A stretch of DNA of 64,000 nucleotides from Gemmatimonadota bacterium (GTDB lineage: Bacteria; Gemmatimonadota; Gemmatimonadetes; JACCXV01; JAHWKZ01). Of this stretch, positions 1,956-51,398 are shown in pieces. A program made the translations under genes and the position numbers. Location of the stretch: contig JBOHRQ010000003.1 in the NCBI GenBank assembly GCA_050732875.1, positions 2,821 to 66,820 of the forward strand, written 5' to 3'. Numbering within the stretch: position 1 is the first letter of the stretch; each line of letters starts with the position of its first letter. The notes beneath the pieces are model-generated. The model had not been told where the DNA came from. It saw nothing but the letters and a program-made list of their open reading frames with translations, and did not search any database.

Positions 1956-2067
1956 ATTTCTCTCCTTCGAGCGCTGAAGACGATCCGTTCCGTCGTTGCC
2001 CTGCCTCGAGCCTGGGGTCTCGAGCACCTCTATCGTTTCTCCGACGACCTCCCGGCGGACTCCGACG

Positions 2068-2538: not shown

Positions 2539-2572
2539 CGACCTGTCCCGTGGATGCCGGTCGAGGGCGAAA

Positions 2573-2598
2573 GAAAAAAAGTGGGGAGGCCGCCCCAC
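2573..2598 (-). terminator. Rho-independent terminator on the minus strand, between pgeF and the rimP-nusA operon.
   Basis: The minus strand reads GTGGGGCGGCCTCCCCAC followed by a run of 7-8 T: a GC-rich hairpin plus U-tract. This is top strand 2573-2580 (A-run) and 2581-2598 (stem). Confidence 0.7.
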
Positions 2599-2754
2599 TT
2601 CCGCGATGGAATATAGGCCAAAACGCCGCCCCGACAACCTGTTGCGACGGGCGGTGGGGGTCGGTTCGAAACAGACCCGCTGGCCGGCGGGCCGGCTCAA
2701 ACGGGCGGAAGCGGGTGGATCTCAACGCGCCCGGCGGCGCGACCCTGGAAATGG

Positions 2755-5302: not shown

Positions 5303-5303
5303 G

Positions 5304-31403: not shown

Positions 31404-32029
31404 CGTTCTTCCTCCCCAACCAGCAGCAACCGCACGCGGCTGGCGATCATGTCGATGGCGATCTCGTTCTCTCCCCCTTCGGGGATGATCACGTCAGCAA
31501 ACCTCTTGGACGGCTCCACGAACTCGTCGTGCATGGGGCGAACCGTGCGAAGATACTGCTCACCCACCGACTCGAAGGTCCTGCCGCGCTCACGGATGTC
31601 ACGCTGGATCCGGCGCAGCAGACGGATGTCGGGAGGTGTGTCCACGTAGATTTTCACGTCGAGAAGATCGCGCACGTCCGGGAAATGAAACAGCAGAATG
31701 CCCTCCGCGAGGATTACCTCTCGCGGCTCGATGCGGGACGTCTCCGCCGTCCGCACATGCCGTGAGAAGTCGTAGACCGGCCGCTCCACCGGCCGGCCCT
31801 CCTTCAGGGCCCGCAAGTGGGCCGTGAACAGCTCGATCTCGATCGAGTTCGGGTGGTCGAAGTTCCGGGTTGCCCGCTGCGCCGGGGCCAGATCCACGAG
31901 GTTCCGGTAGTAGGCGTCCTGCTGGAGGACGGTGATCGAATCTAGTGCCAGACGATGGAGCAGATTACGGGCGACAGTCGTCTTCCCGGAGCCCGTGCCG
32001 CCCGCGAGGCCGATCACGAACCGGGTCAC
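31400..32029 (-). CDS. udk: Uridine kinase
   Basis: It has the P-loop [13 protein letters not shown] and is Udk-like throughout. Confidence 0.85.
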
Positions 32030-32042
32030 GACGAGGCGCCGA

Positions 32043-32974
<932 letters not shown>

Positions 32975-32978
<4 letters not shown>

Positions 32979-34333
32979 CCGATCCCCGGAGCGACTCGCA
33001 CCGCCTCGCCATCCGCTGCCCGTGGCGCACGTCCGGGACGGCCGATGGAATGGTATTCGAAGCCGAACTCGGTCATCACCCCCGGATCGTACACGTTCCG
33101 GCCATCGAAGACGATCGCCCGGCCCAGCCCCCGTTTCATGCGCTCGAAATCCGGGAACCGGAACTCGTTCCACTCGGTTACGACGATCAGGCCGTCGGCC
33201 GCATCCAGGGCCTCGTAGGCCTCGGCGGCGTATTCGATCCGATCGCCGAGCACGCCCCGGATGTTCTCCATGGCCTTGGGATCGAAAGCCCGGATCGCCG
33301 CTCCCCGCTCCAGAAGCTCGTCTATGATCACCAGCGACGGCGCCTCGCGGATATCATCCGTCTTGGGCTTGAAGGCGAGCCCCCAGACCGCGAACCGGTG
33401 GCCGCGCAAGTCTTCCCCGAACCGCCCGACGATCCGCTCCACTAGGAGCCGCTTCTGGATCTCGTTGACCCTGTGCACGGCCCGGATGATATCGAAATCG
33501 TAGGCCACCTCATCGGCCAGCCGCTCGAGAGCCTGGACGTCCTTGGGGAAGCACGATCCGCCGAATCCGACACCGGGGAAGAGGAACGAGCTTCCGATCC
33601 GCCGGTCGCTTCCGATGCCGGCCCGCACCGCGTCGACGTCGGCTCCGACGCGATCGCACAGGTTGGCGATCTCGTTCATGAAGGTGATTCGCGTCGCCAG
33701 CATCGCATTGGCGGCGTATTTGGTCATCTCGGCGGATCGGGTGTCCATGAAGAGAACCGGGTTCCCGGTCCTCAGGAACGGGCTGTAGATCGCCCTCAGG
33801 ACCTCGCGACCCTCGTCGTCGTCGGCACCCACGACGATGCGGTCGGGCTTCATGAAGTCGTCGACCGCGGTCCCCTCCTTGAGGAACTCCGGGTTGGACA
33901 CCACGATGCAGGGATGGTCGGTCGCCTCGGCGAGGACCGCCCGGACCCGGTCGGCCGACCCCACGGGAACGGTGCTCTTGTTGACCACGATTCTGGGACC
34001 GTCGGCGTGCCGGCCGATCGTCCTGGCGACCTCCAGGACATAGCGCAGGTCCGCAGATCCGTCCTCGCCCGGCGGCGTGCCGACGGCGATGAAGAGGACG
34101 CGGCTTTCCCGTACCGTCTCGGCTGGATCGGTCGTGAAGCAGAGCCGGCCCTCCTGCATGTTGCTGCGGACGATCTCCTCCAGCCCCGGCTCGTAGATCG
34201 GGACCACGCCCCGGCGCAGCCGCTCCACGCGGTCGGGGTCGATGTCGCAGCAGATGACGTCGTGGCCCATCTCGGCCAGACACGTCGCCGTCACCAGCCC
34301 CACGTACCCCGCCCCGAAGACCCCCAGATTCAA
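32975..34333 (-). CDS. ugd: UDP-glucose 6-dehydrogenase
   Basis: It has the N-terminal motif [20 protein letters not shown] and the catalytic-Cys motif [11 protein letters not shown]. There is no intein here, which contrasts with the gene at 41309-44083. Confidence 0.9.
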
Positions 34334-35790
34334 GCTTCGCCCCCCTGCCCGTCGGCGATCCGCCCGATGATTCCGGTCGTGGACTTGCCTTCCACGAGCT
34401 CGATCAGCTCGACCCTCCCGCCGCGGGCGCGGACGATGTCGGCTCCGACCACCTCATGGGGCTCGTAATCGGCCCCCTTGGTCAGGATGTCCGGCTGGAT
34501 GGTCTCGATCAGCCCGAGCGGCGTGTCCTCGTCGAAGATCACGACGTAGTCGACGAACGACAGGGCCGAGAGGATCTCCGCACGCTCCTTCTGATCCAGG
34601 ATCGGACGATTCGCGCCCTTGAGCCTTCGCACCGAGGCATCGCTGTTCACGCCCACCACCAGGCAATCGCCCAGCGCCCGCGAGGACTTCAGGTACCGGA
34701 TGTGTCCGGCGTGCAGGAGGTCGAAGCAGCCGTTGGTGAAGACCACCGTCTCACCGCGCCGCCGGTGCTCGGCGGCCGCAAACCCGGCGGTGGCCGCGTC
34801 CACGCTTTTTTCCATATGGGGCAGCTCGCGCGCGAGCTCCGACTCGATCTCGGTCCAGGTCACGGTCGCGGTTCCGACCTTTCTCACTTTGATTCCCGCC
34901 GCCACGTTCGCCATCCGCGCGGCGAGATCCGCAGGATGCCCGTCGGCCAGCATGGCGGTGAAGGCGGCCGCGAACGTGTCGCCTGCCCCGGTCACGTCGA
35001 AGACCTCGCGGGCGCGCGCGCCGTGATCCCGCGGAGGGCCACCCGAATAGAGCCTCATGCCGCGCTCCGAGCGCGTCAGCACGAGCGCTTGAAGGTCCAG
35101 TCTCCGGCGCAGCGACTCGGCCAGCGCGTCGTCCCAGGGTTCTCCGGCGAGCTCGCTCAGCTCGCTCTCGTTCGGGACGAGAAAGTCGACCCCACGATAG
35201 CGCTCCGGGTCGCTCCCCTTCGGATCGGCCACGACCGGACGGTCCCCGGCCCGTTCCGACAGCCGCCTCACCCCTTCGGCCGAGACGGTCCCCTTGCGGT
35301 AGTCGCTCACGATCGCCGCGTCGCAGCCCGGAGCGAGCCGATCGATTACCTCCAGCAGCTCCCGCCGGGCTCGCCCGGACGCACCCTCCGGATCCTCGTA
35401 ATCGATCCGGACCAGGGCATGCTGACCGGCATGGACCCGCAGCTTGTGCGGAGTGGGCCGCCGAGGCTCGACCACGAGCCCCTCGTCCGTGAACCCCTCG
35501 GCCACGAGCTTTGCCCGGCACTCGCGGCCGCTCTCGTCGTCGCCCACCAGCGAGATCAGGACCGGCTCGCATCCGAGGGCCGCCAGGTTGCGGGCGACAT
35601 TCCCGGCGCCTCCCGGGTAGAGGTCCCGCCGCTCGAACGTCACCACGGGGACCGGCTTCTCCGGGCTCAGCCGATCCGCCCGCCCGAACAGATACTCATC
35701 GAGCATGAGATCCCCGAAAACGACGATGCGACCGCCGCGAAACCCGCGCACGGCCGCGCGCAGCTCTTCAATGGAGGAAGCCCCCGGCAT
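34330..35790 (-). CDS. hldE: Bifunctional D-beta-D-heptose 7-phosphate kinase / D-beta-D-heptose 1-phosphate adenylyltransferase
   Basis: An N-terminal PfkB-type kinase domain is followed by a C-terminal cytidylyltransferase domain (NGCFDLLHAGHIRYL). Confidence 0.9.
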   Translation of the reverse strand: MPGASSIEELRAAVRGFRGGRIVVFGDLMLDEYLFGRADRLSPEKPVPVVTFERRDLYPGGAGNVARNLAALGCEPVLISLVGDDESGRECRAKLVAEGFTDEGLVVEPRRPTPHKLRVHAGQHALVRIDYEDPEGASGRARRELLEVIDRLAPGCDAAIVSDYRKGTVSAEGVRRLSERAGDRPVVADPKGSDPERYRGVDFLVPNESELSELAGEPWDDALAESLRRRLDLQALVLTRSERGMRLYSGGPPRDHGARAREVFDVTGAGDTFAAAFTAMLADGHPADLAARMANVAAGIKVRKVGTATVTWTEIESELARELPHMEKSVDAATAGFAAAEHRRRGETVVFTNGCFDLLHAGHIRYLKSSRALGDCLVVGVNSDASVRRLKGANRPILDQKERAEILSALSFVDYVVIFDEDTPLGLIETIQPDILTKGADYEPHEVVGADIVRARGGRVELIELVEGKSTTGIIGRIADGQGGEA

Positions 35791-35905
35791 AAGAATCGGG
35801 CTAAGCTATCCTCCGCGCCCGAGCGCTTCAAGACCTTGCCGCCGCTGCATTTGAGCGAAAGCCGTTTGCCCCGTCCAGTGGCCCCATCTAGGTTGGCGCC
35901 AGCCC

Positions 35906-36544
35906 ATGTCGACCCGCGAGGCACTACAGCCTGACCACGCAGCCGACCCTCTGGTCGTGCTCAGCGAGCAGGCGCGGGCCCGGATCCGGGTCGCGCTAGG
36001 CGCGGCCGCCCCTCCCCGGCGCCATCTCCGGGTCCGGGTCACATCGCACGACGGCGGATTCGAGTACCAGCTCCAGGGTCTGAACGAGGAACAGATCCAG
36101 GCCAGTGACATCCGGCTCGAGGAGGAGGGCTTCACGCTCGTGGTCGACGCGGACAGCGCCAACCGGCTTCGAGGCACCCGGATCGATTACCGCGAGACGC
36201 TCGTTGAGAGGGGCTTCCACTTCGACAACCCCAACACCTCCCCGGGGCCGGCGCTCCCCCGTGGCGACCGCCCCGACCTCCAGGGCCCGTTGCCGGACCG
36301 CGTCCGGATGCTCCTCGATTCCGAGATCAACCCGGCGATCGCCGCCCACGGGGGGCACGTCCGCCTGGTGGACGTGCGGGACGATCGCGTCTTTCTGGCC
36401 TTCGGGGGCGGCTGCCACGGCTGCGGCATGGTGGACGTGACCCTCAAGCAGGGCATCGAGCGGCGGATCCGGGAGGCGGTCCCCGAGGTCGCCGAGGTGA
36501 TCGACACGACCGACCACTCGACCGGGGAGAGCCCGTACTTCTAG
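35906..36544 (+). CDS. Fe-S cluster biogenesis protein, NfuA-like: an A-type-carrier-like N-domain fused to an Nfu domain.
   Basis: The C-terminal Nfu motif GGGCHGCGM is present and the N-terminal domain is HesB/IscA-like. It is a plus-strand gene, divergent from hldE. Confidence 0.7.
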   Translation: MSTREALQPDHAADPLVVLSEQARARIRVALGAAAPPRRHLRVRVTSHDGGFEYQLQGLNEEQIQASDIRLEEEGFTLVVDADSANRLRGTRIDYRETLVERGFHFDNPNTSPGPALPRGDRPDLQGPLPDRVRMLLDSEINPAIAAHGGHVRLVDVRDDRVFLAFGGGCHGCGMVDVTLKQGIERRIREAVPEVAEVIDTTDHSTGESPYF

Positions 36545-36585
36545 CCCCCGCGGGCTCGGCTCGCTGCGTGGTAGCTTCCCACACG

Positions 36586-36620
36586 AAAAAACGGGCGACC
36601 TGCGTGGTCGCCCGTTTTTC
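36586..36620. terminator. Bidirectional intrinsic terminator between the convergent nfuA-like gene and the radical SAM gene.
   Basis: The sequence is AAAAAACGGGCGACC-TGCGT-GGTCGCCCGTTTTT: a perfect 10-bp GC-rich stem flanked by an A-run and a T-run. Confidence 0.8.
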
Positions 36621-36664
36621 ATTGGGAGCAGAGGGTTTCCGCTCGGAAACGAGCCCGGTCTGCC

Positions 36665-38848
<2,184 letters not shown>

Positions 38849-38945
38849 TCGTTCCTCCTTCGGCGAGAAGGGTCAGGAACTCAAGAATCCACCGGGATAG
38901 TAGCGGGTTCCAACAACGCTGTAAAGCGATCGGTTCGGAGCGCCT

Positions 38946-40127
38946 TTATCCCGTTCGGGCCTGCTCTCCACCACTCTGCCAGAGCAGGCTCGGCAGGCTG
39001 TTCAGGAAGCCGCGGGGAGTGTACAGGACCTCCACCTCCCCTCGGCAGGAATACCAGCACGCGGTACAGGTGTTCGTTGCGTGCGCGTGGCGCAGCCCCG
39101 CCAGGACCTGCTCCATGGAATCGGTGCGCAGGTTGCCGACCGGTTCGCTGGCGTTGAATTCGACGCACTTGGAGACGACCATCTGGTTGTCGATGTTGAA
39201 CATGGCCTTCCCGGCGATGCAGCCGCCGATCCCGTCATTCGCGGCCTCGTCGAACTTTTCCAGGTACACCCGGTTCGAGTGGACGGTCCCGGGATAGAGC
39301 TCCTTGAGGCCGAGCAGCATCTCCGAAGCGCCCGCCAGGTGCCGCTGGTCCTCGTTGCCCGTCTTCATGACCGAGTAGGGCTGCACCTGCCAGTAGACGC
39401 CCAGATCGCGGGCCAGCCGGCACAGGGCGGGCATCTCCTGGAGGTTATCGTCGGTCAGCACCGAGATGATCTGCACCCGCTGGTACGAGGTGTCGGTCCG
39501 GGCATCCATGAGCTGTTCGATCGCCTTCACCGCGCGCTCGAACGCGAACCTCACGCCACGGTGACGGGAGTGCTTCTCCGGGTCGGCGTAATCGATCGAG
39601 ATCGAGCATCCCCACAGACCGGCCTGCCACAGCTCCCGGGCCCGTCTGGGCGTCATCCCCGAGCCCGACGAGGTGAGGTACGGGAAGTGGTCCTGGGCCA
39701 GGATGCCCACGATGCGGTGGATGTCGCGCCGCAACATCGGCTCCCCGCCGGCCAGGGAGACGATCAGCGAACCCATCTCGGAGAGCTTCCGCGAGCCGGT
39801 CACGAAGTCCTCGAGCGAGTTCTCCTCCTCGGGTTTGAAGTCGTTCTGCCAGTAGGTGCAGAACGAGCAGCCGTAGTTGCAGTTGTAGGTCACCTGCCAG
39901 GTCACCCAGACGGGACGGCCGGTGAGGTACGCTTTCAGGAGCCGCCCCTTCTTCGACCACGTTCCGCGTGGCGCCAGCGCCAGGTAGTCGTCCACCCGGA
40001 CCGGGGGACCGATCGGCAGCTCGATCACCTCGCCTCGCGAACGGCCGCGCTCCGAGCCCGGAACCAGGGACTCATCGGTGGAATTGTGTCCGCTTAGCAG
40101 GGATTCGAGCGGGATGGGCCTGGTCAT
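38946..40127 (-). CDS. Radical SAM enzyme with a SPASM/twitch-like C-terminal domain.
   Basis: The CX3CX2C motif is CNYGCSFC, followed by SLAGGEPM. C-terminal Cys-rich motifs are present (GGCIAGK...SKC...NTCTACWYSC). The true start may lie further in-frame. Confidence 0.8.
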   Translation of the reverse strand: MTRPIPLESLLSGHNSTDESLVPGSERGRSRGEVIELPIGPPVRVDDYLALAPRGTWSKKGRLLKAYLTGRPVWVTWQVTYNCNYGCSFCTYWQNDFKPEEENSLEDFVTGSRKLSEMGSLIVSLAGGEPMLRRDIHRIVGILAQDHFPYLTSSGSGMTPRRARELWQAGLWGCSISIDYADPEKHSRHRGVRFAFERAVKAIEQLMDARTDTSYQRVQIISVLTDDNLQEMPALCRLARDLGVYWQVQPYSVMKTGNEDQRHLAGASEMLLGLKELYPGTVHSNRVYLEKFDEAANDGIGGCIAGKAMFNIDNQMVVSKCVEFNASEPVGNLRTDSMEQVLAGLRHAHATNTCTACWYSCRGEVEVLYTPRGFLNSLPSLLWQSGGEQARTG

Positions 40128-40209
40128 ATCGCTCGCTGGGCTGGAGGTGAGGAAGATCCGTCTTCCGCACAGATGTCGGCGGTAGTCTAACCGGCCCCTT
40201 TTCCCGGTG

Positions 40210-41259
40210 TCAAACTCCGGTCGAGCCTGCCCGGACGGCCTCGAGGAACCACGCCACCGTCTCGTCCAGGCCCCTGTCCAGATCGTGGGTCGGGCGATAG
40301 TCGAGGAGCTGGGCCGCCCGCGAGATGTCGGCCTCGGAGTGGGGCACGTCCCCGGGACGGGAGGCAGCGTGCTCCGGCTTCCGGTCCTCGGCCCCCGGGA
40401 CGGCCCGCGCCACACGCCTCCGGATCTTCTCGAACAGCTCGCCCAGGCTCGTCCGCCTTCCGACCGCCACGTTGATGACGGATCCGACCGCGCCGGGCTC
40501 CCGGGTCAGCGCGGCCAGCAGGTTGGCCTGGACGGCATTGGCCACGTAGCAGAAATCCCGGCTGGACTGCCCATCGCCAAAGATGACGACGGGACGGTCC
40601 TGAAGAAAGGCGTCGATCCAGCGCGGCACCACGGCCGCGTAGGGTCCATCCGGTCGCTGCCGCGGACCGAAGACGTTGAAGTAGCGCAAACCTACGACCT
40701 CGAGCCCATAGGAGCGGGCGTGGGCGGCCGCGGCCAGCTCTCCCGCCACCTTGCTGGCCGCGTAGGGCGAGAGCGGGCGCCCGCGGCGATCCTCCACCTT
40801 GGGCAGCCCCGGATCGTCGCCGTAGACGGAGCTGCTCGACGCGTAGACCACGCGCGGACGGCCTCCGCGGCGCGCCGCCTCCAGTACGTTCACCGTCCCC
40901 AGCACGTTGACCGAATGGGTCTCGAGCGGATTCTCCATGGATCGGGGAACCGAGCCGAGCGCAGCCTGGTGGAGAATGACGTCCACGTCGCGAGCGGCCT
41001 CGCGGGTCGCGTCGAGGGAGCGGATGTCCGCGTGATGGAAGTGGAAGCCTCCCCATCGCTCCTCCCCGACCCGCGCCCGCACGTCCTCGAGGTTGGCCGG
41101 CGAGCCGGTGGACAGGTCGTCCAGCCCCACCACCTCCTGATTGAGCGCCAGGAGGGCCTCCAGAAGGTGCGAGCCGATGAAGCCCGCGACGCCGGTCACG
41201 AGCCAGCGGCGGGGGAGACGCCCCAGTTCGTCGAGCAGGTTCGCTGGAAGGGTTCGCAT
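40210..41259 (-). CDS. NAD-dependent nucleotide-sugar epimerase, resembling WbpP / UDP-GlcNAc 4-epimerase.
   Basis: It has the N-terminal motif WLVTGVAGFIGSHL, the catalytic YAASK, and overall extended-SDR epimerase similarity. Confidence 0.8.
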   Translation of the reverse strand: MRTLPANLLDELGRLPRRWLVTGVAGFIGSHLLEALLALNQEVVGLDDLSTGSPANLEDVRARVGEERWGGFHFHHADIRSLDATREAARDVDVILHQAALGSVPRSMENPLETHSVNVLGTVNVLEAARRGGRPRVVYASSSSVYGDDPGLPKVEDRRGRPLSPYAASKVAGELAAAAHARSYGLEVVGLRYFNVFGPRQRPDGPYAAVVPRWIDAFLQDRPVVIFGDGQSSRDFCYVANAVQANLLAALTREPGAVGSVINVAVGRRTSLGELFEKIRRRVARAVPGAEDRKPEHAASRPGDVPHSEADISRAAQLLDYRPTHDLDRGLDETVAWFLEAVRAGSTGV

Positions 41260-41308
41260 GGCGCTCGGCTCCCCGCCGGACTCATGGCTCGGGACTCGTG
41301 GATCCACG

Positions 41309-44083
41309 CTACGCCTTGAGCAGCTTGCCCGGGGCCACGTCGATCCCCTCCATCGCATTGCGGGTGTCGACGATGCAGCGCGCCCACTCGGCCAGCTCCC
41401 GATAGTCGACCGCCGCGTGCCGGGTCGAGATCACCACCACGTCGAAGGCGGAGATCGTCTGCCGGTCCCAGTCCACCGAGCGGGTTCCCGCCCAGTCGGA
41501 GTGCTCGCGGCTCGGCTGGATGACCGGCACGTGGGGATCGTGGTAGGCGACCTCCGCGCCGCGCTCCCGCAGGCGGTCCATGAGGTGGTAGCTGGGTGAC
41601 TCCCGGTCATCGGAGACGTCGGGCTTGTAGGCCAGGCCGAGAATCAGGACCCGGCTCCCGTTGACGGCCCGGCTCCGCGCGTTGAGCGCCTCGATCACGC
41701 GGGCCACGACGTGCTCCGGCATGCCGGTGTTGATCTCCCCGGCGAGCTCGATGAAGCGGGTGCTCTTGCCGTGCTCGCGGGCCTTCCAGGAGAGGTAGTA
41801 GGGATCGATGGGAATGCAGTTGTGGGAGACGAGTCCGTAGGAGGTCACATAGGTCTCCGTCCCGGGTACCTCGATCGAATACACCCAGCCGCCCTCGCGC
41901 TTGCGCACGCTGCCCGCCCCTACCGACGCGAACCCCGAGTGCCGGCGGGTCTTTCGGGTGGGCGTCGAGACGACCTTGCGATCCAGATAGGTATCCAGCT
42001 TCGCGCCCTTCGCTCCCGCGAGCAGGGGTCGGATCCGCCGCAGCTGCTCTCTGCCGTACAGCCGCATCTCGCGTGAATTCCGCTTGATGGTCGGCGTCAG
42101 CTCCAGACTGTGCATCAGCAGCAGAACCTGCTGAAAGAGCTTCGGACTGGACGTGAAGTAGCTGACTTCAGCGGTATCGAGCCGATGATCATAGGTTCGG
42201 CCACCTTTCCGGTAGACTCGTCGACCCTGGGTCGCGTAGACGCTCCCGTCGCCGTTCAGCAACGCCCCCAGAAGGTTGAGCCGCACCTCTTCGCTGGCAC
42301 CCAACATGATGGCCGGCACGCTCATCTCCTCCGACCGGACTCCGCAGCCGAGCACGTCCTTGAGAAAGATGCCGAACAGGTTGGAGGAAACCTTAATCTG
42401 AACCGCCCGCCAGCGCTTGACGCGATGCATTGACCAGCGCAGGCCCATCCGCGTCAGGATCCCCGTCAGGTCGTCGATCAGCTCACATTCATGGGATCCG
42501 AAGACCCACCGCGTACGCCAGGACCGGTCGCGAGACAGGCACCCCTCACTGAGGTAGTAGCCGATCAGGCGGGCGAACTCGGGATCCAGCGCGATGATGC
42601 AGGGGACGCGGGCCTGGGCCGCCCCGTTGCCGGTGGTCAGGAACAGGTCCTCGCGGCGGAAGGCCACCATCCCGCTGCTCTCGAGCTCCAGAAACGCGGA
42701 CAGGGGGAGGGTGTTCGAGCGCCGGAGGTCCTTACCCTCGAGTCCCGCCCGGCGCGCCACCGTCCGGATGGACGGCCACGAGTCGATCCAGGCCCCTGTC
42801 CGGGGCTTCACCCGGACCTTCGAGCCGGATGCGAGATCGAGGGCGTCGATGAGATCGATCGATCGCAGCGACCCGGACTCGGGCAGGCCCAGCGCCAGGA
42901 TGGGTCGGGCATCCTCGATCGAATCGGCCCGCCGGACATGGAGCTCGCCCCGCTGGCGCACGATCAAGGGGTGCCCGTCCGTCACCGTCAGCGTCCGGCC
43001 CTCCGACGTGCGCAGGGTGACGCGGTCGCCGCACCACCTTCGAAATACGTGCGTTGCTCTGCGGAAGCAGACCTCGCTTCTGTCGAGATCGAAGGAGAGA
43101 ACCTCCATCTCCCGGAGCGCCCGCACCTCTACCTCTCCGATCCTCCGCAGCCTGGCCCCGTCCCCGGCGAGCTCCTTCATGCGGACCGCGTCGATGCCGC
43201 CGTCACGGCGGACGAAGACGAACTCCTCGCCGTCCTGACAGTGCCCGCCCCAGCCAGGGCCGGGATCGAAGCGCATGAATCCGAACGGTTTGGTGTCCGC
43301 GGCCGCCAGGACTTCCCAGATGTCGACCCCCATCCGCTCGTAGATCAGCTTGAGCTCGTTGACGAGCGCGATGTTGACGGCGCGGAAGACGTTCTCGGTG
43401 AGCTTGGTGGCTTCGGCGACCCGGGCCGAGGAGACCCGGACCGTGGAAGGGACGATCCAACGGTAGAGGGCCTCCGCGAGATCGCCCGAGACGGGATCGA
43501 CACCGCCGACCACCTTGGGGACCGTCGTCGTGGTGTGCTGCGCATCCCCCGGGTTCTCGCGTTCGGGCGAAAAAGCCAGGAAGAAGTCGTGGCCGCAGCG
43601 GAGGCCGCCCGACTCGAGCCGCGGCCGGAGGAGCTCCTCCGCGGTACCCGGATACGTGGTCGACTCGAGCACTACGAGCTGTCCCGCTCGGAGCCGGCCG
43701 CGGACCTGATCGGTCGTCTGCTCGATGTATTGCATGTCCGGCTCGCGATGGGCCGTCAGCGGGGTGGGAACGCAGATCAGGATAGCGTCCGGCTCGGACA
43801 GGCGCTCGAAGTCCCCGGTCGCCACCAGCCGGCCGGCCTCGACGACCGCCCGCACGCGCCCTCCATCCAGATGCGCGATGTAGCTCTCGCCACGTGAAAG
43901 GGCCTCGACCTTGGCCGGATCGACATCGAAGCCCAGAACGTCGAAGCCCCGCTCGGCGAAGGCGAGCGAAAGCGGCAGGCCTACGTAGCCCATCCCGACG
44001 ACGCCCACCCGTGTGGCCCCCGAGTCGATCCTCTCCCGGAGAGCCTGCGCGGCGGCGGAGGTGGCGCGCTCTTCGACCGTCAC
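41309..44083 (-). CDS. UDP-N-acetyl-D-glucosamine/mannosamine 6-dehydrogenase (WbpA/WecC-like), interrupted by an intein.
   Basis: The N-extein carries VGVVGMGYVGLPL and GFMRFDPGPGWGGH, and the C-extein begins CIPIDPYYL. Together the exteins make 451 aa of contiguous nucleotide-sugar dehydrogenase. The GTG start overlaps the stop of the upstream epimerase as GTGA. Confidence 0.85.
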   Translation of the reverse strand: MTVEERATSAAAQALRERIDSGATRVGVVGMGYVGLPLSLAFAERGFDVLGFDVDPAKVEALSRGESYIAHLDGGRVRAVVEAGRLVATGDFERLSEPDAILICVPTPLTAHREPDMQYIEQTTDQVRGRLRAGQLVVLESTTYPGTAEELLRPRLESGGLRCGHDFFLAFSPERENPGDAQHTTTTVPKVVGGVDPVSGDLAEALYRWIVPSTVRVSSARVAEATKLTENVFRAVNIALVNELKLIYERMGVDIWEVLAAADTKPFGFMRFDPGPGWGGHCQDGEEFVFVRRDGGIDAVRMKELAGDGARLRRIGEVEVRALREMEVLSFDLDRSEVCFRRATHVFRRWCGDRVTLRTSEGRTLTVTDGHPLIVRQRGELHVRRADSIEDARPILALGLPESGSLRSIDLIDALDLASGSKVRVKPRTGAWIDSWPSIRTVARRAGLEGKDLRRSNTLPLSAFLELESSGMVAFRREDLFLTTGNGAAQARVPCIIALDPEFARLIGYYLSEGCLSRDRSWRTRWVFGSHECELIDDLTGILTRMGLRWSMHRVKRWRAVQIKVSSNLFGIFLKDVLGCGVRSEEMSVPAIMLGASEEVRLNLLGALLNGDGSVYATQGRRVYRKGGRTYDHRLDTAEVSYFTSSPKLFQQVLLLMHSLELTPTIKRNSREMRLYGREQLRRIRPLLAGAKGAKLDTYLDRKVVSTPTRKTRRHSGFASVGAGSVRKREGGWVYSIEVPGTETYVTSYGLVSHNCIPIDPYYLSWKAREHGKSTRFIELAGEINTGMPEHVVARVIEALNARSRAVNGSRVLILGLAYKPDVSDDRESPSYHLMDRLRERGAEVAYHDPHVPVIQPSREHSDWAGTRSVDWDRQTISAFDVVVISTRHAAVDYRELAEWARCIVDTRNAMEGIDVAPGKLLKA
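41819..43240 (-). mobile_element. Intein of 474 aa with a LAGLIDADG-type homing endonuclease domain, inserted at the catalytic Cys of the dehydrogenase.
   Basis: It begins with Cys (CQDGEEFVFV), has block B TDGH, and carries two LAGLIDADG motifs (LIGYYLSEGC and LLGALLNGDGSVY). It ends ...YGLVSHN, followed by the +1 Cys of the CIPID active site. Confidence 0.85.
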
Positions 44084-45063
44084 TCGGCCCCGGCCGACGC
44101 GACCTCGCGGTACCAGCGGACGAACGCCTCGAGACCCTCGTCGAGGCCGGTCCCGGGGTCGTACCCGAGCAGCCTTCGGGCACTCTCGATGTCGGCACAG
44201 GTCCGCTCGACGTCCCCCACCGGAAGCGGAAGACGCTCGATCCGCGCCTGGCGGCCGGTGGTCCGGGAGAGCGCCTCGATCAGATCGTTCAATCGCACCG
44301 GGACCGCTTCCCCCAGGTTGACGACCTCGAAGCCCTCCTCGCTCCGGACCCACCCCACGGACGCCACGACGCCGGCGACGATGTCCGAGAAGTACGTGTA
44401 GTCCCGTTCGCTCGTGCCGTCGCCGTAGACCTGGATCGGCAGCCCGTCCTCCATGAGACGCACGAAGCGGTGGATCGCCATGTCGGGACGCTGGCGAGGC
44501 CCGTAGACGGTGAAGAACCGCAGCGACATGACCGTGAAGCCATGCGCCGAGTGATACACGTGGCAGAGCTCCTCGCCGGCCTTCTTCGTCATCGCGTAGG
44601 GAGAGATGGGCCGATCGACGCGATCGGTTTCCCGGAGGGGCACGTCGGGCCTGTTGCCGTACACCGACGACGAGGAGCCGAACACCAGCCGGTGGCAGCC
44701 CGCTTCGCGCATCGCCTCCATGAGGATCACCGTGCCTTCGAGGTTGGTGCTCACGTATCCACAGGGGTCCTCCAGGGACGGTCGGACGCCGGCGCGCGCG
44801 CCGAGGTGGACGACGGCATCGTACGTCCCATCCGCGAAGAGTCCCGCGACGTCGGTCGGTTCCCGGAGATCCCCCTCCACCAGTCGGAACCGCTCGCTCT
44901 CTCGCAGGGCGGCGAGATTTCGTTCCTTGATTCTCCGGGGGTAGAATGGATCGAAGTTGTCGAAGGCCACCACTTCGTGGCCTTGCTCCACGAGCGACTC
45001 GCAGAGGTGGGACCCGATGAAGCCGGCCCCCCCGGTGACCAGGATCCGCCCTGTGCCGGTCAT
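44080..45063 (-). CDS. NAD-dependent epimerase/dehydratase, resembling UDP-glucuronate 4-epimerase.
   Basis: It has ILVTGGAGFIGSHL and the catalytic YAMTK. Its stop overlaps the start of the dehydrogenase. Confidence 0.8.
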   Translation of the reverse strand: MTGTGRILVTGGAGFIGSHLCESLVEQGHEVVAFDNFDPFYPRRIKERNLAALRESERFRLVEGDLREPTDVAGLFADGTYDAVVHLGARAGVRPSLEDPCGYVSTNLEGTVILMEAMREAGCHRLVFGSSSSVYGNRPDVPLRETDRVDRPISPYAMTKKAGEELCHVYHSAHGFTVMSLRFFTVYGPRQRPDMAIHRFVRLMEDGLPIQVYGDGTSERDYTYFSDIVAGVVASVGWVRSEEGFEVVNLGEAVPVRLNDLIEALSRTTGRQARIERLPLPVGDVERTCADIESARRLLGYDPGTGLDEGLEAFVRWYREVASAGAE

Positions 45064-45078
45064 CCCGCGCACGGCCAT

Positions 45079-47334
45079 TCAGGCGGATCCCCGGCGGGCC
45101 GCCTCGAGCTGCTCCAGCTCCTCGGCGGTGATCAGGACTTCGCGCGGCCTGGTCCCGTCCGGAGGTCCGACCACGTGCGCTCGCTCGAGCTGGTCCAGAA
45201 TCCGGGCGGCCCGCGAGTAGCCGACTTTGAGCCGGCGCTGGAGCAGGCTCGTCGACCCCTGATCGTGCTCCATGACCACGCGCGCGGCCGCGAGGAAGAG
45301 CTCGTCCCGTTCGTCCAGCGCCGCCATCTCCAGCTCCGACACCTCGGCGATGATGTCCACCGGCGGGGCCACCTCCGACGCATTGAGCACCTCGCCCGCC
45401 GCGCGCAGGTAGTCGACTACGCGCACGGTCTCGGCGGTCGAGACATACGCCCCCTGGATCCGCAGCGGCTCCGCCCGATCAGCGGGCATGAAGAGCATGT
45501 CGCCGTTGCCCAGCAGCTGCTCGGCGCCGTTCATGTCGAGGACGGTGCGGCTATCGATCTTCGAGGACACTTGAAACGAGACCCGCGACGGGAAGTTGGC
45601 CTTGATCACGCCGGTGATCACGTTGACCGAGGGCCGCTGCGTGGCAAGCACGAGGTGGATCCCGACGGCCCGGGCCATCTGGGCGAGCCGGGCGAGCGGC
45701 TCCTCGATCTCGTTCTGCACGGTCAGCATGAGGTCGGCCAGCTCGTCGATCAGGACGACGATGAAGGGCAGCGGGCGCGGATCCTCCTCGTCGAGCCAAT
45801 CCAGGTCGCTCCCGGCCCGGTGACGAGCGTTGAAGTCCTCCAGGCTCCGCACGCCGTTGGCCGCCAGAAGCCGGTAGCGCCGCTCCATCTCCGCGACCGT
45901 CCATTTCAGCGCCTTGGCCGCGTGCTTGTGCTCGACCACCACCGGGTGCAGGAGGTGCGGGATGCCATTGTAGGCGATGAGCTCGAGCATCTTCGGATCG
46001 ATCATGATGAGGCGCACGGCCTCGGGGCCGTACCGATAGATCAGGCTCGTCACGAGCGCGTTGATGCAGACGGACTTGCCGGAGCCCGTAGCGCCCGCGA
46101 TCAGCAGATGCGGCATCCTTGCCAGATCGGTCACGATCGGCGCGCCGGCGATCTCGCGCCCGAGCGCGAGCGGGAGCTTGCCGCGGAATCCATTCCACTC
46201 TGCGGCCTCCAGAATCTCGCGGATGGTGACCGTGTGCGGGCGGGTGTTGGGGATCTCGATGCCGACCGCTCCCTTGCCCGGGATCGGGGCCACGATGCGG
46301 ATGCGCTGGGCGCGCATGGCGAGCGCCAGGTCGTCGGCGAGGTTGGCGATCTGGTTCACCTTGACGCCAGGCGCGGGCTTGACCTCGAACTGCGTGAGGA
46401 CGGGACCCGAATGGATCGCCACGATCTCCCCTTCGACATGGAACGAACGCAGCTTCTCGATCAGCACGCCGCCGAGCTGTTCGAGCTCCTCGCGGGTCTG
46501 CCGGCTCCCGGCGGGAGGGGCCGGATCGAGCAGATCGATGGGGGGGATGAATCCGTCGGGCTCGAAAGAAGGCTTCTCCCTCCGGGGGCCGGGTGACGGA
46601 GGGCGCGGCGCGCCTCGCTTCGCGGTCCCCGGGTCAGCCACGGGCGGCTCGGCCTGGGCCGCCGGAGGCGGGCCGCCGTTGACCGTCGCCGCCTCCGGCT
46701 CGGGCGGCGATTCGTCCGCCGCCACTCGACCGGCGCGCCATTCCTGGACCGAGGTGCCCAGCGCCCCCATCCCGTCGCGGGCGCGGCGACCACCGGCCCG
46801 ACCGAGATCCATGCTCGTCCGGACTCCCTCCGCCAGCGAGATCCGGAAGACCACCGCTGCCAGCACGGCGACGAGGACGACGCAGGCGATCAGGGCGCCG
46901 GCCACCCCGATGGCCTCCACGGCCAGACCGGCAAGGGTTTCGCCCAGCCGACCCGCCCGCGCGCCCCAGAGCCCGCCGGCACCGCTCCAGATCGCCACCA
47001 CGCCCATCAGGACCAGCAGCGTCACGCCGGCGACCGCGGCCGCCCCGGAGATCAGGCCCGCCTTGCGCGTGACCTGGTCCAGGAAGACGAGCCCTCCCCA
47101 GACGAGCAGCAGGACCGCCGCGAGGAGGGCCCCGTACCCGAGCGCGGCATACAGATGGTACGCGCTGATGGCCCCCACCACCCCCACCAGATTCAGGGTC
47201 GAAGGGAGCCGCGAGAGGGTCGGGTCGAACGGCCAGAGCGCGAGCAGCAGGAAGATGCCCGTGGCCGCCATGAGCAGCCCGAGGACCTCGTGCCTCAGGC
47301 GGAGATGATCGCGCTTCCTCTTGCGTGGCGGCAT
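45079..47334 (-). CDS. ftsK: DNA translocase FtsK/SpoIIIE
   Basis: N-terminal TM helices and a Pro/Ala-rich linker precede the motor domain (Walker A: GATGSGKS) and the C-terminal gamma winged-helix domain. Confidence 0.9.
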   Translation of the reverse strand: MPPRKRKRDHLRLRHEVLGLLMAATGIFLLLALWPFDPTLSRLPSTLNLVGVVGAISAYHLYAALGYGALLAAVLLLVWGGLVFLDQVTRKAGLISGAAAVAGVTLLVLMGVVAIWSGAGGLWGARAGRLGETLAGLAVEAIGVAGALIACVVLVAVLAAVVFRISLAEGVRTSMDLGRAGGRRARDGMGALGTSVQEWRAGRVAADESPPEPEAATVNGGPPPAAQAEPPVADPGTAKRGAPRPPSPGPRREKPSFEPDGFIPPIDLLDPAPPAGSRQTREELEQLGGVLIEKLRSFHVEGEIVAIHSGPVLTQFEVKPAPGVKVNQIANLADDLALAMRAQRIRIVAPIPGKGAVGIEIPNTRPHTVTIREILEAAEWNGFRGKLPLALGREIAGAPIVTDLARMPHLLIAGATGSGKSVCINALVTSLIYRYGPEAVRLIMIDPKMLELIAYNGIPHLLHPVVVEHKHAAKALKWTVAEMERRYRLLAANGVRSLEDFNARHRAGSDLDWLDEEDPRPLPFIVVLIDELADLMLTVQNEIEEPLARLAQMARAVGIHLVLATQRPSVNVITGVIKANFPSRVSFQVSSKIDSRTVLDMNGAEQLLGNGDMLFMPADRAEPLRIQGAYVSTAETVRVVDYLRAAGEVLNASEVAPPVDIIAEVSELEMAALDERDELFLAAARVVMEHDQGSTSLLQRRLKVGYSRAARILDQLERAHVVGPPDGTRPREVLITAEELEQLEAARRGSA

Positions 47335-47338
47335 GGCG

Positions 47339-48706
<1,368 letters not shown>

Positions 48707-48711
48707 AACGC

Positions 48712-49164
48712 TCAGGCCGTTTCGATCTCGAAGAGGGCCTGCCCGTACTCGACGGGCTGACCGTTCTCGACCAGAATCCTGCGGACGACTCCGCTGACCT
48801 CCGATTCGAGTTCGTTCATCAGCTTCATCGCCTCGAGGATGCAGAGGGTCTGCCCCGGCCGAACGGTGTCTCCCACCTCCACGAACGGAGGAGCCTCCGG
48901 AGCGGGCGCCCGGTAAAAGGTGCCAACCATCGGCGAAGCGACTGCCTGAGTGGGCCTGGAGGCGGCCGCCGGGGCTTCCGCCTCCTCGGACCGACCCCCT
49001 GCCACCGCGCTGGCCGAAGGGACCTCGCCCGTTCCCCCGGACGCCTTCGGATGGCGGCTGTTCTTGACGATGCGCACCGTCCTCCACCAGCGCCGGATCT
49101 CCAGCTCGTCGATCTCGCTCTCCTCGACGAGCTGGATCAGGGTCTTGAGCTCGTCCCGGTTCAC
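48712..49164 (-). CDS. accB: Biotin carboxyl carrier protein
   Basis: It has the C-terminal biotinyl domain with the EAMKLMNE motif. Confidence 0.9.
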
Positions 49165-49721
49165 GAAACCCGCTCGAGATAGGCGCGAGTGCGGGTGTCC
49201 ACGCGGATCGTCTCGCCCTTGTTCACGAACAACGGCACGTGCACGACGGCCCCCGTCTCGATGACGGCCGGCTTGGTTCCCCCGGTAGCCGTGTCCCCAC
49301 GCACACCCGGATCGGTCTCCATGATGCGCGCCTCGATGAAGTTGGGGAGCTCGACCCCGAGGACCGACCCGTCGTGGACGAGGACGTCGCAGATCGTCCC
49401 CTCCTTGAGAAACGCCTTCTGATCGGTCAGCAGGCGTTCGTCGACGGGGTGCTGCTCGTAGGTGTCCATGTCCATGAAATAGGCATGGTGCTCGTCCGCG
49501 TAGAGGAACTGCATCGAGCGGCGTTCCAGGCGCACCTCCTCGACGCGCTCTCCGGCGCGGAAGGTCCGCTCCACGACCTGGCCCGTCTCGACCTTCTTGA
49601 GCTTCGTGCGGACGAACGCGCCGCCTTTGCCTGGCTTGACGTGCTGGAAGTACACGACCTGCCAGAGGTCGCCGTCCATCCGCAGGACCATGCCGTTCCG
49701 AAAGTCTGCCGTCGTCGCCAT
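49161..49721 (-). CDS. efp: Elongation factor P
   Basis: It is full-length EF-P, including the KPGKG loop. Confidence 0.95.
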
Positions 49722-49748
49722 GGGGGTGCCGATGGGGTCCGGTGGAGG

Positions 49749-50831
49749 TTACAGGACGATGAGCTCGTCCGGCGCGGTGCGGGCCAGCGGGCGCGCGCTC
49801 GCGGCCGCTACGACGAAGTCGTCTTCGATTCGGACGCCGCCCAATCCTTCAATATAGATACCGGGTTCCAGCGTCACCACCGCGCCCACCGGAACGGGAC
49901 TGGCGTTCCCCTTCCACAGACGCGGATCTTCGTGGACTTCGAGCCCGATGCCGTGTCCCAGCGAATGGGTGAACGCCAGGCCATGGCCTGCCTCCTCGAT
50001 GAGGTCGCGGGCCAGAGCATCCGCGCGCCGGCCTTCTATGCCTCCGCACAGCCCGTCCATCGCGGCGTACCGGGCGCGGTCGACGACCCGATACGCGTCG
50101 CTCAGGCGAGGGTCCGGAGAACCGCAGGCCACGGTGCGGCTCACGTCGCTGCAGTAGCCGTCCACCACGGCGCCGAAATCGAACAGCGCGACCTCTCCGC
50201 GCGCGAGCGCTCGCCCGCCCGGCTCGGCGTGTGGAAGCGCGGCCCGCTCTCCGAACTGTACGATCGTGTCGAAGGGGAAGCGCTCGCTTCCCCGCTGCCG
50301 CAGCTCATGCTCCAGGCGACTGGCGAGGTGGAGCTCGGTCACGCCGGGTCGAATCTCCGGGAGGACGGCCTCGAACGCGTCCACGGCGATCCCGGCGGCA
50401 CGGGCGATCGCCTCGCGTTCGGGAATCGACTTCACGGTGCGGAGCCCCTCCACCCATCCCGAGACGCCCTCCAGCGGCGGTCCGCCCGCGGATTCCCACG
50501 CCTGGTACTGCGCGACCGACAGACGATCCTGCTCGAACACCACGACTCCCTCGTGGCCGGCCAGGTGCTCGCGCGTGGTCTCGAGGGGGCGCTCCGCGGC
50601 GATCGCGACCGCGACGTCCTCGCCGACCTCCACGCGCGCCTGCGATTCGTTCATCCGCACGATGAAGAGGGTGTCCGGTCCGTCGGCCGCCAGCAGGAGG
50701 GCGCCACCACCTTGAAAGCCGGTCAGGTAGCGGATGTTGGGAGGGTGGACGACGAGCAGGGCCGAGCCTCCGACATCGGCCAGCCGCTCACGCAGGCCGC
50801 CGCGGCGAGCCGCTAGCGGCTCGCCAGCCAC
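49749..50831 (-). CDS. Xaa-Pro aminopeptidase / M24-family peptidase
   Basis: The M24 metal-ligand motifs ([17 protein letters not shown]) are present and the gene is in the classic position upstream of efp. The start is uncertain. Confidence 0.75.
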
Positions 50832-51187
50832 GCCTCGAAGACCTCGTCTCGTGCCTCTTCGTGGGGGGGGCCTGCGTGGCGGATCTCCTCGTCGCGCGCG
50901 CTGTCGCTCTCCATCTGCGCGGGGTCGCTCTCCATCTGCGCGGAAAGGTCGGAGCGCTCGACGACGAGGTCCGGCTCCGCCGCGGAAACCCGGCTGCGGT
51001 CCTGGATGGCCTGCGTCAGCGTTTCGATCCGCTCGGCGATGCGCGGATCGTCCGGCGAGCGCTGCGCGATCCGCTCGTAGATCGCCCGCGCGCGCTCGAG
51101 GAGACCCTGCTGGGCATAGATCTCGGCCAGGGTGGAGGTGGCCAGATCCTGCCCGCCCCGGTCGCGTTCGTCTTCCTGCACGATCAT
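50813..51187 (-). CDS. Hypothetical acidic protein of 124 aa with a TPR-like N-terminus.
   Basis: The ORF translation starts MIVQEDE... It contains a tandem 21-bp coding repeat (SDPAQME twice) and is divergent from ppiD. Confidence 0.4.
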   Translation of the reverse strand: MIVQEDERDRGGQDLATSTLAEIYAQQGLLERARAIYERIAQRSPDDPRIAERIETLTQAIQDRSRVSAAEPDLVVERSDLSAQMESDPAQMESDSARDEEIRHAGPPHEEARDEVFEAWLASR

Positions 51188-51398
51188 CGGCGCCAGTATA
51201 GAGACGGGCCCCCTCCCCGAGCAACGCCGTTTCTCGACGCAACACCGTTTCTCGACGCGATGGCACGGCGGAGCTATCTTCGACGCGTCAGTCCGGCAGC
51301 CTTCCCTATCCTTCGATCGACCGGCCCGTCGAAACGTTCCGCCCCGGCATCGCGAGGATCGAGGGCATCCCGAAACCGCTTCCAGGACCGCACGAACC

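Follow-up and report, generated by a model that had tools for sequence, protein, structure and literature searches.

The minus-strand gene at 41309..44083 of the window, by which we mean the whole 64,000-nt stretch of DNA analyzed, encodes a nucleotide-sugar dehydrogenase of a Gemmatimonadota bacterium that is interrupted by an in-frame intein located directly after His281 and before the catalytic cysteine. Very probably, the element is a canonical class-1 LAGLIDADG intein that splices and homes as proposed below; we infer both activities, splicing as well as DNA cleavage, from its residues and from the workings of such inteins. The assignment to the class-1 inteins (Hint fold) is based on Cys1, the TxxH motif, the terminal His-Asn followed by Cys, the predicted fold, and an exact empty allele.

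Architecture of the interrupted dehydrogenase

The precursor comprises 924 aa (102.8 kDa) according to the open reading frame listing and its translation, and the NCBI gene call for an identical protein from a Gemmatimonadota MAG (P0001) likewise gives 924 aa. Upstream lies an NAD-dependent sugar epimerase/dehydratase gene (44080..45078, minus strand), whose TGA overlaps with the GTG start codon of the dehydrogenase as GTGA; the gene order matches that of the syntenic Gemmatimonadota contig L001 and of L082. Downstream lies a TviC/WbpP-like UDP-sugar 4-epimerase gene (40210..41259, minus strand), syntenic in L001, L082, and L083, whose score of 366 bits with the TviC equivalog profile NF011728 falls below the cut-off of 760 bits. 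The dehydrogenase gene sits in an envelope-sugar gene cluster. Pfam recognizes the N-terminal, central, and C-terminal UDPG_MGDP_dh domains as well as LAGLIDADG_3 within the precursor. The N-extein (43241..44083, minus strand, 281 aa) holds the NAD-binding and central domains (PF03721, PF00984) and ends in FDPGPGWGGH, while the C-extein (41309..41818, minus strand, 169 aa plus stop) begins with CIPIDPYYL, comprises the remaining active-site helix (CIPID) and the UDP-binding domain (PF03720), and aligns to 4r16 and Cap5O. Between them, the intein (41819..43240, minus strand, 474 aa, 1422 bp, 53.3 kDa, pI 9.9) runs in frame from CQDGEEF to YGLVSHN and consists of a Hint splicing domain into which a LAGLIDADG endonuclease domain is inserted. 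The sequence-only reading had placed a 474-aa insert in this minus-strand gene, and its coordinates, exteins, Cys start, and HN end proved exact to the base. According to a regular-expression scan of the 64,000-nt window, this is its only intein.

Removal of the intein in silico leaves a 450-aa nucleotide-sugar dehydrogenase of 49.4 kDa with the motif GGHCIPID. No gap interrupts the junction when the joined exteins are aligned to 4r16 of P. horikoshii (E 1e-66) or to Cap5O of S. aureus (E 2e-60); the +1 Cys (TGC codon, 41816..41818, minus strand) pairs with the cysteine of GGHCLPKD in the former and of GGHCLAVD in the latter. Gly-Gly-x-Cys-x-x-x-Asp is invariant in the dehydrogenase family, with the cysteine acting as covalent catalyst (PMC4794789). 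Together with this motif, the alignments bear out the earlier claim that the +1 Cys, the splice-junction nucleophile, is also the catalytic nucleophile of a WbpA/WecC-like dehydrogenase. Splicing in silico also turns the TIGR03026 hit (cut-off 189.8 bits) from two split stretches of 394 bits into one full-length match of 414 bits and, with GGHCIPID, restores a contiguous active site as had been predicted. The joined exteins miss the equivalog profiles of WecC (265 against 750 bits), the archaeal UDP-ManNAc dehydrogenase (244 against 459 bits), and TviB (211 against 592 bits); all scores being below cut-off, the substrate is left unfixed. Intein-free orthologues are named UDP-N-acetyl-D-glucosamine dehydrogenase by JGI, and on sequence grounds the host is assigned, at the family level, as a UDP-N-acetylhexosamine 6-dehydrogenase of the WecC/WbpA/TviB family. 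A paralogue at 32975..34333 is a UDP-glucose-type dehydrogenase of a different subfamily (GGSCFPKD type), which is also present in the intein-free L001; its active-site motif is unbroken, as had been noted before.

All residues expected of a splicing-competent intein are in place. Block A, CQDGEEFVFVRRD (43202..43240, minus strand), provides Cys1 as the first nucleophile; block B, EGRTLTVTDGHPLI (42962..43003, minus strand), carries the T87-x-x-H90 motif as TDGH (intein aa 87-90); and blocks F and G, GGWVYSIEVPGTETYVT (41819..41893, minus strand), close with SYGLVSHN and the terminal His473-Asn474. In an alignment of 12 diverse family members, 32-64% identical to the window intein, C1, T87, H90, E232, D331, H473, and N474 are invariant throughout. 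Where block F often has Asp, Ser is found here (VYSIEV), a residue common enough there. Blocks A, B, F, and G, on whose presence the first interpretation depended, were thus all recovered. The profile evidence expected alongside them came out mixed: the C-terminal profile TIGR01443 (intein_Cterm; 26.7 against 15.6 bits) and LAGLIDADG_3 exceed their cut-offs, whereas TIGR01445 (intein_Nterm; 22.1 against a curated 24.5 bits) and PF14890 (Intein_splicing; 25.8 against a curated 35.8 bits) fall slightly below theirs, still with significant E values of 2e-4 and 1e-5, respectively. The scores of LAGLIDADG_3, of TIGR01443, and, for the joined exteins, of TIGR03026 lie far outside what chance would produce. 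In the precomputed Pfam annotation, PF14890 is assigned to most homologues. An AlphaFold model of the intein (pLDDT 90.4, pTM 0.89) matches PI-PkoII (E 5e-28), the TliVMA and PhoVMA inteins, PI-PfuI, and PI-SceI, and its predicted Hint fold matches the mini-inteins of Pab PolII, Pho RadA, and TFIIB at an rmsd of 1.4-4 Å over ~120 residues.

The endonuclease domain spans approximately intein aa 211-400 (42041..42610, minus strand), as delimited by Pfam LAGLIDADG_3 (PF14528; 39 bits against a cut-off of 22.5) and by a phmmer match to PI-PkoII residues 267-398. Its first motif (block C), FARLIGYYLSEGC (42539..42577, minus strand), includes LIGYYLSEGC at aa 225-234, with E232 as the presumed metal-binding catalytic residue, and G227, Y228, L230, E232, G233, and C234 are invariant in the alignment. 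The second (block E), LLGALLNGDGSV (42239..42274, minus strand; LLGALLNGDGSVY at intein aa 323-335, with LLGALLNGDG), contains D331 as the presumed second catalytic residue within the invariant G330, D331, and G332. Foldseek matches the domain to PI-PkoII, PI-PfuI, I-Tsp061I, I-OnuI, and I-AniI. The TDGH block and both LAGLIDADG motifs picked out from the sequence at the outset are therefore present, and the insert carries what residues and model identify as a double-motif LAGLIDADG homing endonuclease with both acidic residues kept.

Empty allele and evolutionary history

The contig L001 is 88-89% identical to the window over ~19 kb and lacks exactly the 1422 bp of the intein, the flanks of the insertion site being 88.3% and 88.9% identical, one value per side. 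Its empty site reads TTCGATCCCGGACCCGGCTGGGGCGGGCAC directly followed by TGTATCCCCATCGATCCGTACTACCTCTCC and differs from the joined window flanks at five of 60 positions, all of them synonymous. More generally, the extein homologues closest to the window gene are intein-free at ~90% identity, and on a neighbour-joining tree of the exteins (249 columns, without support values) intein-bearing alleles are polyphyletic and interleaved with intein-free ones. This tree and the ~90% identical, syntenic intein-free allele point to ongoing gain and/or precise loss. Intein and extein identities are also discordant: an Eisenbacteria-like group shares ~52% in the extein and ~60% in the intein, another group ~64% and ~36%, respectively. 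Such presence/absence polymorphism at one site, combined with discordant identities, fits a mobile element under selection. Across the comparisons made, dN/dS amounts to 0.19-0.23 for the intein overall and to 0.08-0.24 for the exteins, with the endonuclease domain (0.11-0.15) showing the lowest values within the intein.

These data bear directly on the alternatives. That the 474 residues are a true domain of the dehydrogenase, inserted and kept for good, has next to no probability: the one point of support, the continuous reading frame, is outweighed by syntenic orthologues without exactly these residues, by the invariant GGxCxxxD catalytic loop that would be split, and by a fold and motifs of intein-endonuclease type. 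The empty-site allele of L001 refutes it, and the concern raised along with the original claim, that homologs might carry the insert as an ordinary domain, was resolved by the L001 orthologue without the 1422 bp. Very improbable as well is a decayed, non-splicing intein in a gene that is functionally a pseudogene, its need being covered by the dehydrogenase at 32975..34333 or by other enzymes. Two general intein profiles under their curated cut-offs and the presence of that UDP-glucose-type paralogue within the same window agree with such decay, but every splicing residue is intact, the 924 codons are open and translationally coupled to the gene upstream, and the exteins are under strong purifying selection (dN/dS 0.08-0.10 against L083, the nearest intein-bearing relative, and 0.16 against L001). 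Since the paralogue belongs to another subfamily and also occurs in intein-free L001, it is no replacement for the interrupted enzyme. The pseudogene reading was rejected on these grounds.

Unlikely, too, is a splicing-competent intein with an inactive endonuclease, that is, a vertically inherited passenger subject to occasional precise deletion or allele replacement. Co-inheritance would explain why, in comparison with L083, the dS of the intein (0.50) is close to that of the exteins (0.32-0.46), and the nearly ameliorated GC3 agrees with it. Derivatives whose endonuclease is dead or lost exist in the family, namely P0009, in which the motif-2 Asp is replaced (NGGGSV), and P0029, a 172-aa mini-intein at the same insertion site; the homologue search also listed proteins of 610-630 aa, whose length would leave room for a mini-intein alone. 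Against an inactive endonuclease stand the two catalytic acidic residues, which are both kept in this intein and do not vary among 12 diverse members, the endonuclease-domain dN/dS as the lowest in the intein, the discordance of intein and extein identities across lineages, and the polyphyly of intein-bearing alleles on the extein tree. We favor the canonical homing intein. Judged by synonymous sites, intein and exteins have diverged to about the same degree since the lineages of the window and L083 separated, which would also be compatible with vertical descent plus precise losses and no recent homing. Co-conversion tracts around the insertion site, sought in 60-nt identity bins against empty and occupied alleles, gave no clear signal; identity beside the junction was 88-96% in every comparison.

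In terms of base composition, the intein has a GC content of 0.662 (exteins 0.689-0.690, endonuclease part 0.619) and a GC3 of 0.848 (exteins 0.861-0.947, endonuclease part 0.805). The match to host GC from which the sequence-only reading had concluded long residence holds roughly, the intein being almost ameliorated, but simple long vertical residence does not follow from it. That the endonuclease part, being lower in GC, is of recent foreign origin was rejected as well, with GC3 still at 0.81 in this part, 0.85 in the whole intein, and 0.86-0.95 in the exteins.

Distribution and relation to known inteins

The window intein very probably belongs to an already known intein type, of which bacterial members were published in 2014. 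Soucy et al. (2014, PMC4071816) list the ‘udp’ intein allele for seven Halobacteria, six other Euryarchaeota, and two Bacteria (Fervidibacteria and Dictyoglomus thermophilum), and name one intein position alone in the UDP-glucose/ManNAc dehydrogenase host. Via this literature, the window intein can be likened to the ‘udp’ allele (InBase Mja UDP GD, Methanocaldococcus jannaschii MJ1054) in host family, full size, homing endonuclease, and cross-domain spread, whereas its host phylum, Gemmatimonadota, is absent from that list. Literature searches for ‘MJ1054’ and for ‘intein’ paired with ‘nucleotide sugar dehydrogenase’ returned nothing; a Campylobacter phage paper containing both terms describes no intein in that enzyme. 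A homologue search seeded with an intein-bearing enzyme of Woesearchaeota retrieved DPANN archaea, Peregrinibacteria, and Omnitrophota, with no Methanocaldococcus among the matches listed. Homologues named ‘UDP-N-acetyl-D-mannosaminuronate dehydrogenase/intein/homing endonuclease’ by JGI share insertion site, length (472-493 aa), and motifs with the window intein.

Among characterized inteins, PI-PkoII (Thermococcus kodakarensis DNA polymerase intein 2, PDB 2cw7), PI-PfuI (1dq3), and PI-SceI (1vde) have the same architecture of a Hint domain and a two-motif LAGLIDADG domain, PI-PkoII being the best match in sequence (E 2e-15) as well as in structure (E 5e-28, TM 0.64). They differ in host protein and insertion site and are only 12-19% identical to the window intein; moreover, they are characterized biochemically, while the latter is known from sequence and model.

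In a scan covering a single genome for each species, relatives of the intein were confirmed in 374 stretches. Bacteria account for most of the best 80 (Eisenbacteria, Chloroflexota, Planctomycetota, Omnitrophota, Acidobacteriota, the cultured Desulfonema magnum, and others), and in nearly all of them the site between GGH and C is occupied. The identical site is also occupied in archaeal genomes of Woesearchaeota and Bathyarchaeia, and three subfamilies of dehydrogenases have an intein at the homologous Cys. These archaeal copies, along with the single position named in PMC4071816, lend indirect support to an insertion point shared with the M. jannaschii, halobacterial, and Dictyoglomus inteins. 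With the full-length protein as query, 926 homologues were found at E <= 1e-5, the best 120 of which are intein-bearing and nearly all 900-970 aa long; the intein profile retrieved 264 clusters (50% identity) at E <= 1e-30. Among the matches listed, Gemmatimonadota contribute few intein-bearing alleles (P0001-P0005 and P0029), and the nearest intein outside this phylum is ~60% identical (Eisenbacteria). The initial view that inteins of this enzyme family are mainly archaeal, and a bacterial copy notable, is contradicted by the 374 relatives with their mostly bacterial best 80, the JGI names, and the bacterial ‘udp’ members in PMC4071816. As a known type present in hundreds of bacterial and archaeal genomes, the intein is an ordinary element.

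Proposed mechanism and implications

By analogy to characterized inteins, the 102.8-kDa precursor would be translated first. Cys1 would then undergo an N-S acyl shift helped by Thr87 and His90 of block B, the +1 Cys would attack the thioester (trans-thioesterification), and cyclization of Asn474 with the help of His473 would free the 53.3-kDa intein. A final S-N shift would create a native peptide bond, so that the 49.4-kDa dehydrogenase emerges with its GGHCIPID active site whole. Since the intein splits the active-site loop and has the catalytic thiol as its +1 residue, the dehydrogenase is expected to be inactive before splicing. The freed basic intein (pI 9.9) would be expected to cut an intein-free allele across the coding sequence of GGH-CIPIDPYY, and repair from an intein-bearing copy would copy the element in. 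Homing of this kind would account for the patchy distribution in close relatives and the spread across phyla. The insertion site would also serve the intein as a safe harbour, since it encodes invariant catalytic residues, so that there is hardly any change in the target DNA and a deletion that is not precise would destroy the enzyme.

Conditional splicing has been reported for other inteins. Given the positions of Cys1 and of the catalytic thiol as +1 nucleophile, splicing here might be blocked, e.g., by oxidation of the thiols or by a disulfide between Cys1 and Cys+1, making the intein a post-translational redox switch on envelope UDP-N-acetylhexosaminuronic acid synthesis. We consider this improbable; if true, it would account for purifying selection beyond selfish homing.

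The element adds little new biology but represents a clean textbook case of an intein on a catalytic residue, and the occupied and empty alleles in otherwise collinear genomes offer a convenient natural pair for homing and splicing tests. Annotation pipelines label the 924-aa protein merely as ‘nucleotide sugar dehydrogenase’; surveys of envelope-sugar genes that go by length or by domains would, with the intein unrecognized, mis-size the enzyme in Gemmatimonadota and in numerous further phyla. For the family, the data indicate that bacterial hosts of the ‘udp’ intein, for which a few archaea are usually cited, are numerous in current genomes derived from metagenomes.

Intein and host enzyme at the dehydrogenase active site

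The minus-strand open reading frame (ORF) ends with its stop at 41309 and most plausibly starts with the GTG at 44083, yielding 924 aa; this GTG overlaps, as GTGA, with the stop codon TGA of the epimerase gene lying upstream (44080..45078). An identical protein from a Gemmatimonadota metagenome-assembled genome (MAG) is deposited at NCBI (P0001), merely named "nucleotide sugar dehydrogenase". The translated ORF contains a 474-aa insert (residues 282-755, window 43240..41819, minus strand) beginning with CQDGEEF and ending with YGLVSHN, being preceded by GPGWGGH and followed by CIPIDPYYL. Translation confirmed all coordinates and motifs assigned to the insert by the sequence-only reading, as well as the uninterrupted [11 protein letters not shown] in the paralogous dehydrogenase (32975..34333).

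Pfam analysis revealed three UDPG_MGDP_dh domains in the ORF, the central one being split in two. Joining the flanks in silico resulted in a 450-aa protein with an end-to-end match to TIGR03026 (nucleotide sugar dehydrogenase; 414 bits, cut-off 189.8 bits). The joined exteins form one contiguous dehydrogenase, aligning gap-free over the junction with both the P. horikoshii UDP-ManNAcA dehydrogenase 4r16 (E 1e-66, ...pgigvGGHClpkDpy...) and S. aureus Cap5O (3ojl; E 2e-60, ...pgpgvGGHClavDpy...). The motif Gly-Gly-x-Cys-x-x-x-Asp is invariant throughout this enzyme family, with the Cys (Cys260 in the S. pyogenes enzyme, Cys258 in Cap5O) acting as covalent catalyst and the Asp as general base (PMC4794789). 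Based on this motif and the gap-free alignments, the dehydrogenase's catalytic thiol is the +1 Cys of the insert, as had been proposed. The joined exteins scored below the equivalog cut-offs for archaeal UDP-ManNAc dehydrogenase (265 vs 750 bits), WecC (244 vs 459 bits), and TviB (211 vs 592 bits); intein-free orthologues carry the JGI label UDP-N-acetyl-D-glucosamine dehydrogenase.

Searches of the insert with LAGLIDADG and splicing-domain models placed LAGLIDADG_3 (39 bits, cut-off 22.5) and TIGR01443, the intein C-terminal region (26.7 bits, cut-off 15.6), above their cut-offs, while TIGR01445 (22.1 vs 24.5 bits) and Pfam Intein_splicing (25.8 vs 35.8 bits) were significant by E-value and below the curated cut-offs. 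Intein portions of the archaeal Tes, DNA polymerase II large subunit, and RpoA'' models matched as well. Aligning 12 family members, 32-64% identical to the window's intein, showed invariant positions that included Cys1, Thr87 and His90 of block B, Glu232 at the end of the first LAGLIDADG motif, Gly330-Asp331-Gly332 in the second, and the terminal His473-Asn474. An AlphaFold model built on this alignment was confident (pLDDT 90.4, pTM 0.89). PI-PkoII (2cw7), the closest solved relative by sequence (E 2e-15), was also matched by the model in Foldseek (E 5e-28), together with the endonuclease-bearing TliVMA and PhoVMA inteins, PI-PfuI, and PI-SceI; mini-inteins matched only its splicing domain, and free LAGLIDADG enzymes only its middle domain. 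Profile matches, invariant residues, and fold thus define a standard bifunctional intein-endonuclease. Taken with the gap-free exteins, they uphold the initial assignment, and we consider it very highly probable that a homing-endonuclease intein interrupts the dehydrogenase at its catalytic cysteine.

Empty site, probable homing, and decay

The homologues nearest to the joined exteins (P0121-P0124) are intein-free and share 88-90% identity by global alignment and 90-91% by BLASTP. P0121 is located on L001, a 97-kb Gemmatimonadota contig with the same gene order as the window: FtsK, epimerase, dehydrogenase, TviC-like epimerase, two radical-SAM genes, and second dehydrogenase. Using blastn, window 52000..43238 corresponded to L001 2098..10843 (88.3% identity) and window 41820..31314 to L001 10839..21347 (88.9%), the 1422-bp intein being the sole break in collinearity. 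Over 60 bp, the empty site shows five differences from the joined flanks, all synonymous. Two other relatives (L082/P0002 and L083/P0003) carry the intein at this locus.

Downstream of the dehydrogenase lies a TviC/WbpP-like gene (40210..41259). Its mechanical ORF starts with an ATG at 41358, overlapping the dehydrogenase by 50 nt (region 41259..41358, minus strand). The L001 counterpart (352 aa) starts 24 nt past the dehydrogenase stop, and this synteny favours the internal ATG at 41259 (MRTLPANLL...). Two radical-SAM genes directly follow the sugar genes (38946..40415 and 36665..38848, both minus strand), one having a Zn-ribbon HMPTM domain by synteny with L001; this arrangement is conserved in L001, L082, and L083.

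In a neighbour-joining tree built from the C-terminal portion of the extein, intein-bearing alleles (P0001 with P0003; P0002; P0004; P0005 with P0029) are interleaved with intein-free ones. Extein and intein identities to the window are discordant between groups, amounting to ~52% and ~60%, respectively, for an Eisenbacteria-like group and ~64% and ~36% for another. Near the Gemmatimonadota clade, the tree also places P0199 (437 aa, "Halobacteriales archaeon" MAG), which lacks the intein and is 65% identical to the window's extein; the sugar gene could have been transferred between domains, or the sequence could have been misbinned.

Nei-Gojobori dN/dS values against L083 and L082 were 0.19 and 0.23 for the whole intein, 0.15 and 0.11 for the endonuclease domain, and 0.08-0.10 and 0.22-0.24 for the exteins (0.16 against L001). 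Compared with L083, dS of the intein (0.50) is similar to that of the exteins (0.32-0.46); the intein therefore predates the split of these two lineages. Its GC content is close to that of the host, at 0.662 vs 0.689 (GC3 0.85 vs 0.86-0.95), the endonuclease part being lower (0.619; GC3 0.81). At the same site, P0029 (633 aa, JGI metagenome; extein 69% identical to the window's) has a mini-intein of 172 aa from which the endonuclease domain is deleted, and the full-length P0009 (936 aa) has lost the catalytic Asp of motif 2 (LLNGGGSV) and shows SERC in motif 1; these two represent two decay stages within the same intein allele. In the usual homing cycle, invasion would be followed by vertical inheritance, with the endonuclease occasionally decaying and the element being lost precisely. 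Empty site, interleaved alleles, discordant identities, and selection together fit this cycle. The intact residues, the fold, the selection, and the pattern across the population lead us to infer that the element splices and homes. That redox-gated conditional splicing acts as a switch on envelope-sugar synthesis appears very improbable.

Distribution, hosts, and the known allele

The expectation that a bacterial copy would be notable did not hold. A full-length protein search returned 926 proteins (E <= 1e-5); each of the 120 top-ranking ones bears the intein, and, with few exceptions 900-970 aa long, they originate from Gemmatimonadota, Eisenbacteria, Omnitrophota, Chloroflexota, Planctomycetota, and Acidobacteriota, many being named [quoted passage not shown] by JGI. 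With the 12-intein profile, 264 clusters (50% identity) were found at E <= 1e-30 among 1.84 billion representatives, most of the top-ranking ones being ~900 aa long and having the intein at residue 260-280. Scanning a single genome for each species verified intein relatives in 374 stretches; among the best 80 are the cultured Desulfonema magnum 4be13, Actinomycetes, Clostridia, Elusimicrobia, and the archaeal Woesearchaeota and Bathyarchaeia; nearly all of these 80 loci share the junctions ...GGH|C...HN|C(I/L)P.DP.... No Gemmatimonadota genome occurred among the best 80 of this species-representative scan, whose search pattern the window's intein would fit. The few Gemmatimonadota carriers (P0001-P0005) come from MAGs that apparently lie outside the species representatives, and the intein seems rarer in this phylum than in Acidobacteriota, Omnitrophota, or Chloroflexota.

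Two other subfamilies of the dehydrogenase superfamily also harbour relatives of this intein at the homologous catalytic-Cys position (L020, Desulfonema magnum NZ_CP061800.1, locus nt 2011-4878; L065; L074, nt 2161-4704): a TviB type (PGLVGGH|C...HN|CIGVDPYY, TviB model 474 bits) and a UDP-glucose type (GSGGS|C...HN|CFPKDV). Apparently, the element has moved between paralogous hosts at this conserved site. A ~30% identical intein resides in PurL (FGAM synthase II; NF002290, 912 bits) of Armatimonadota (L078, Candidatus Fervidibacter, nt 2536-6213; L080; L081) with the junctions ...YGN|C...HN|CIG(I/V)PTV, PurL being another host protein of this intein lineage. The profile search of representatives contained ~1220-aa clusters, which fit this host.

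UDP-glucose dehydrogenase has been listed in InBase as an intein host for many years (PMC2874743). Soucy et al. (2014, PMC4071816) treated "udp" as a single allele, i.e., one insertion position, with seven members from Halobacteria, six from other Euryarchaeota (including M. jannaschii NP_248048.1), and two from Bacteria (a Fervidibacteria genome and Dictyoglomus thermophilum), and remarked on its diversity across domains. We infer that the window's intein shares its insertion point with that of MJ1054; the element adds a Gemmatimonadota member to an intein allele that is already known and very widespread.
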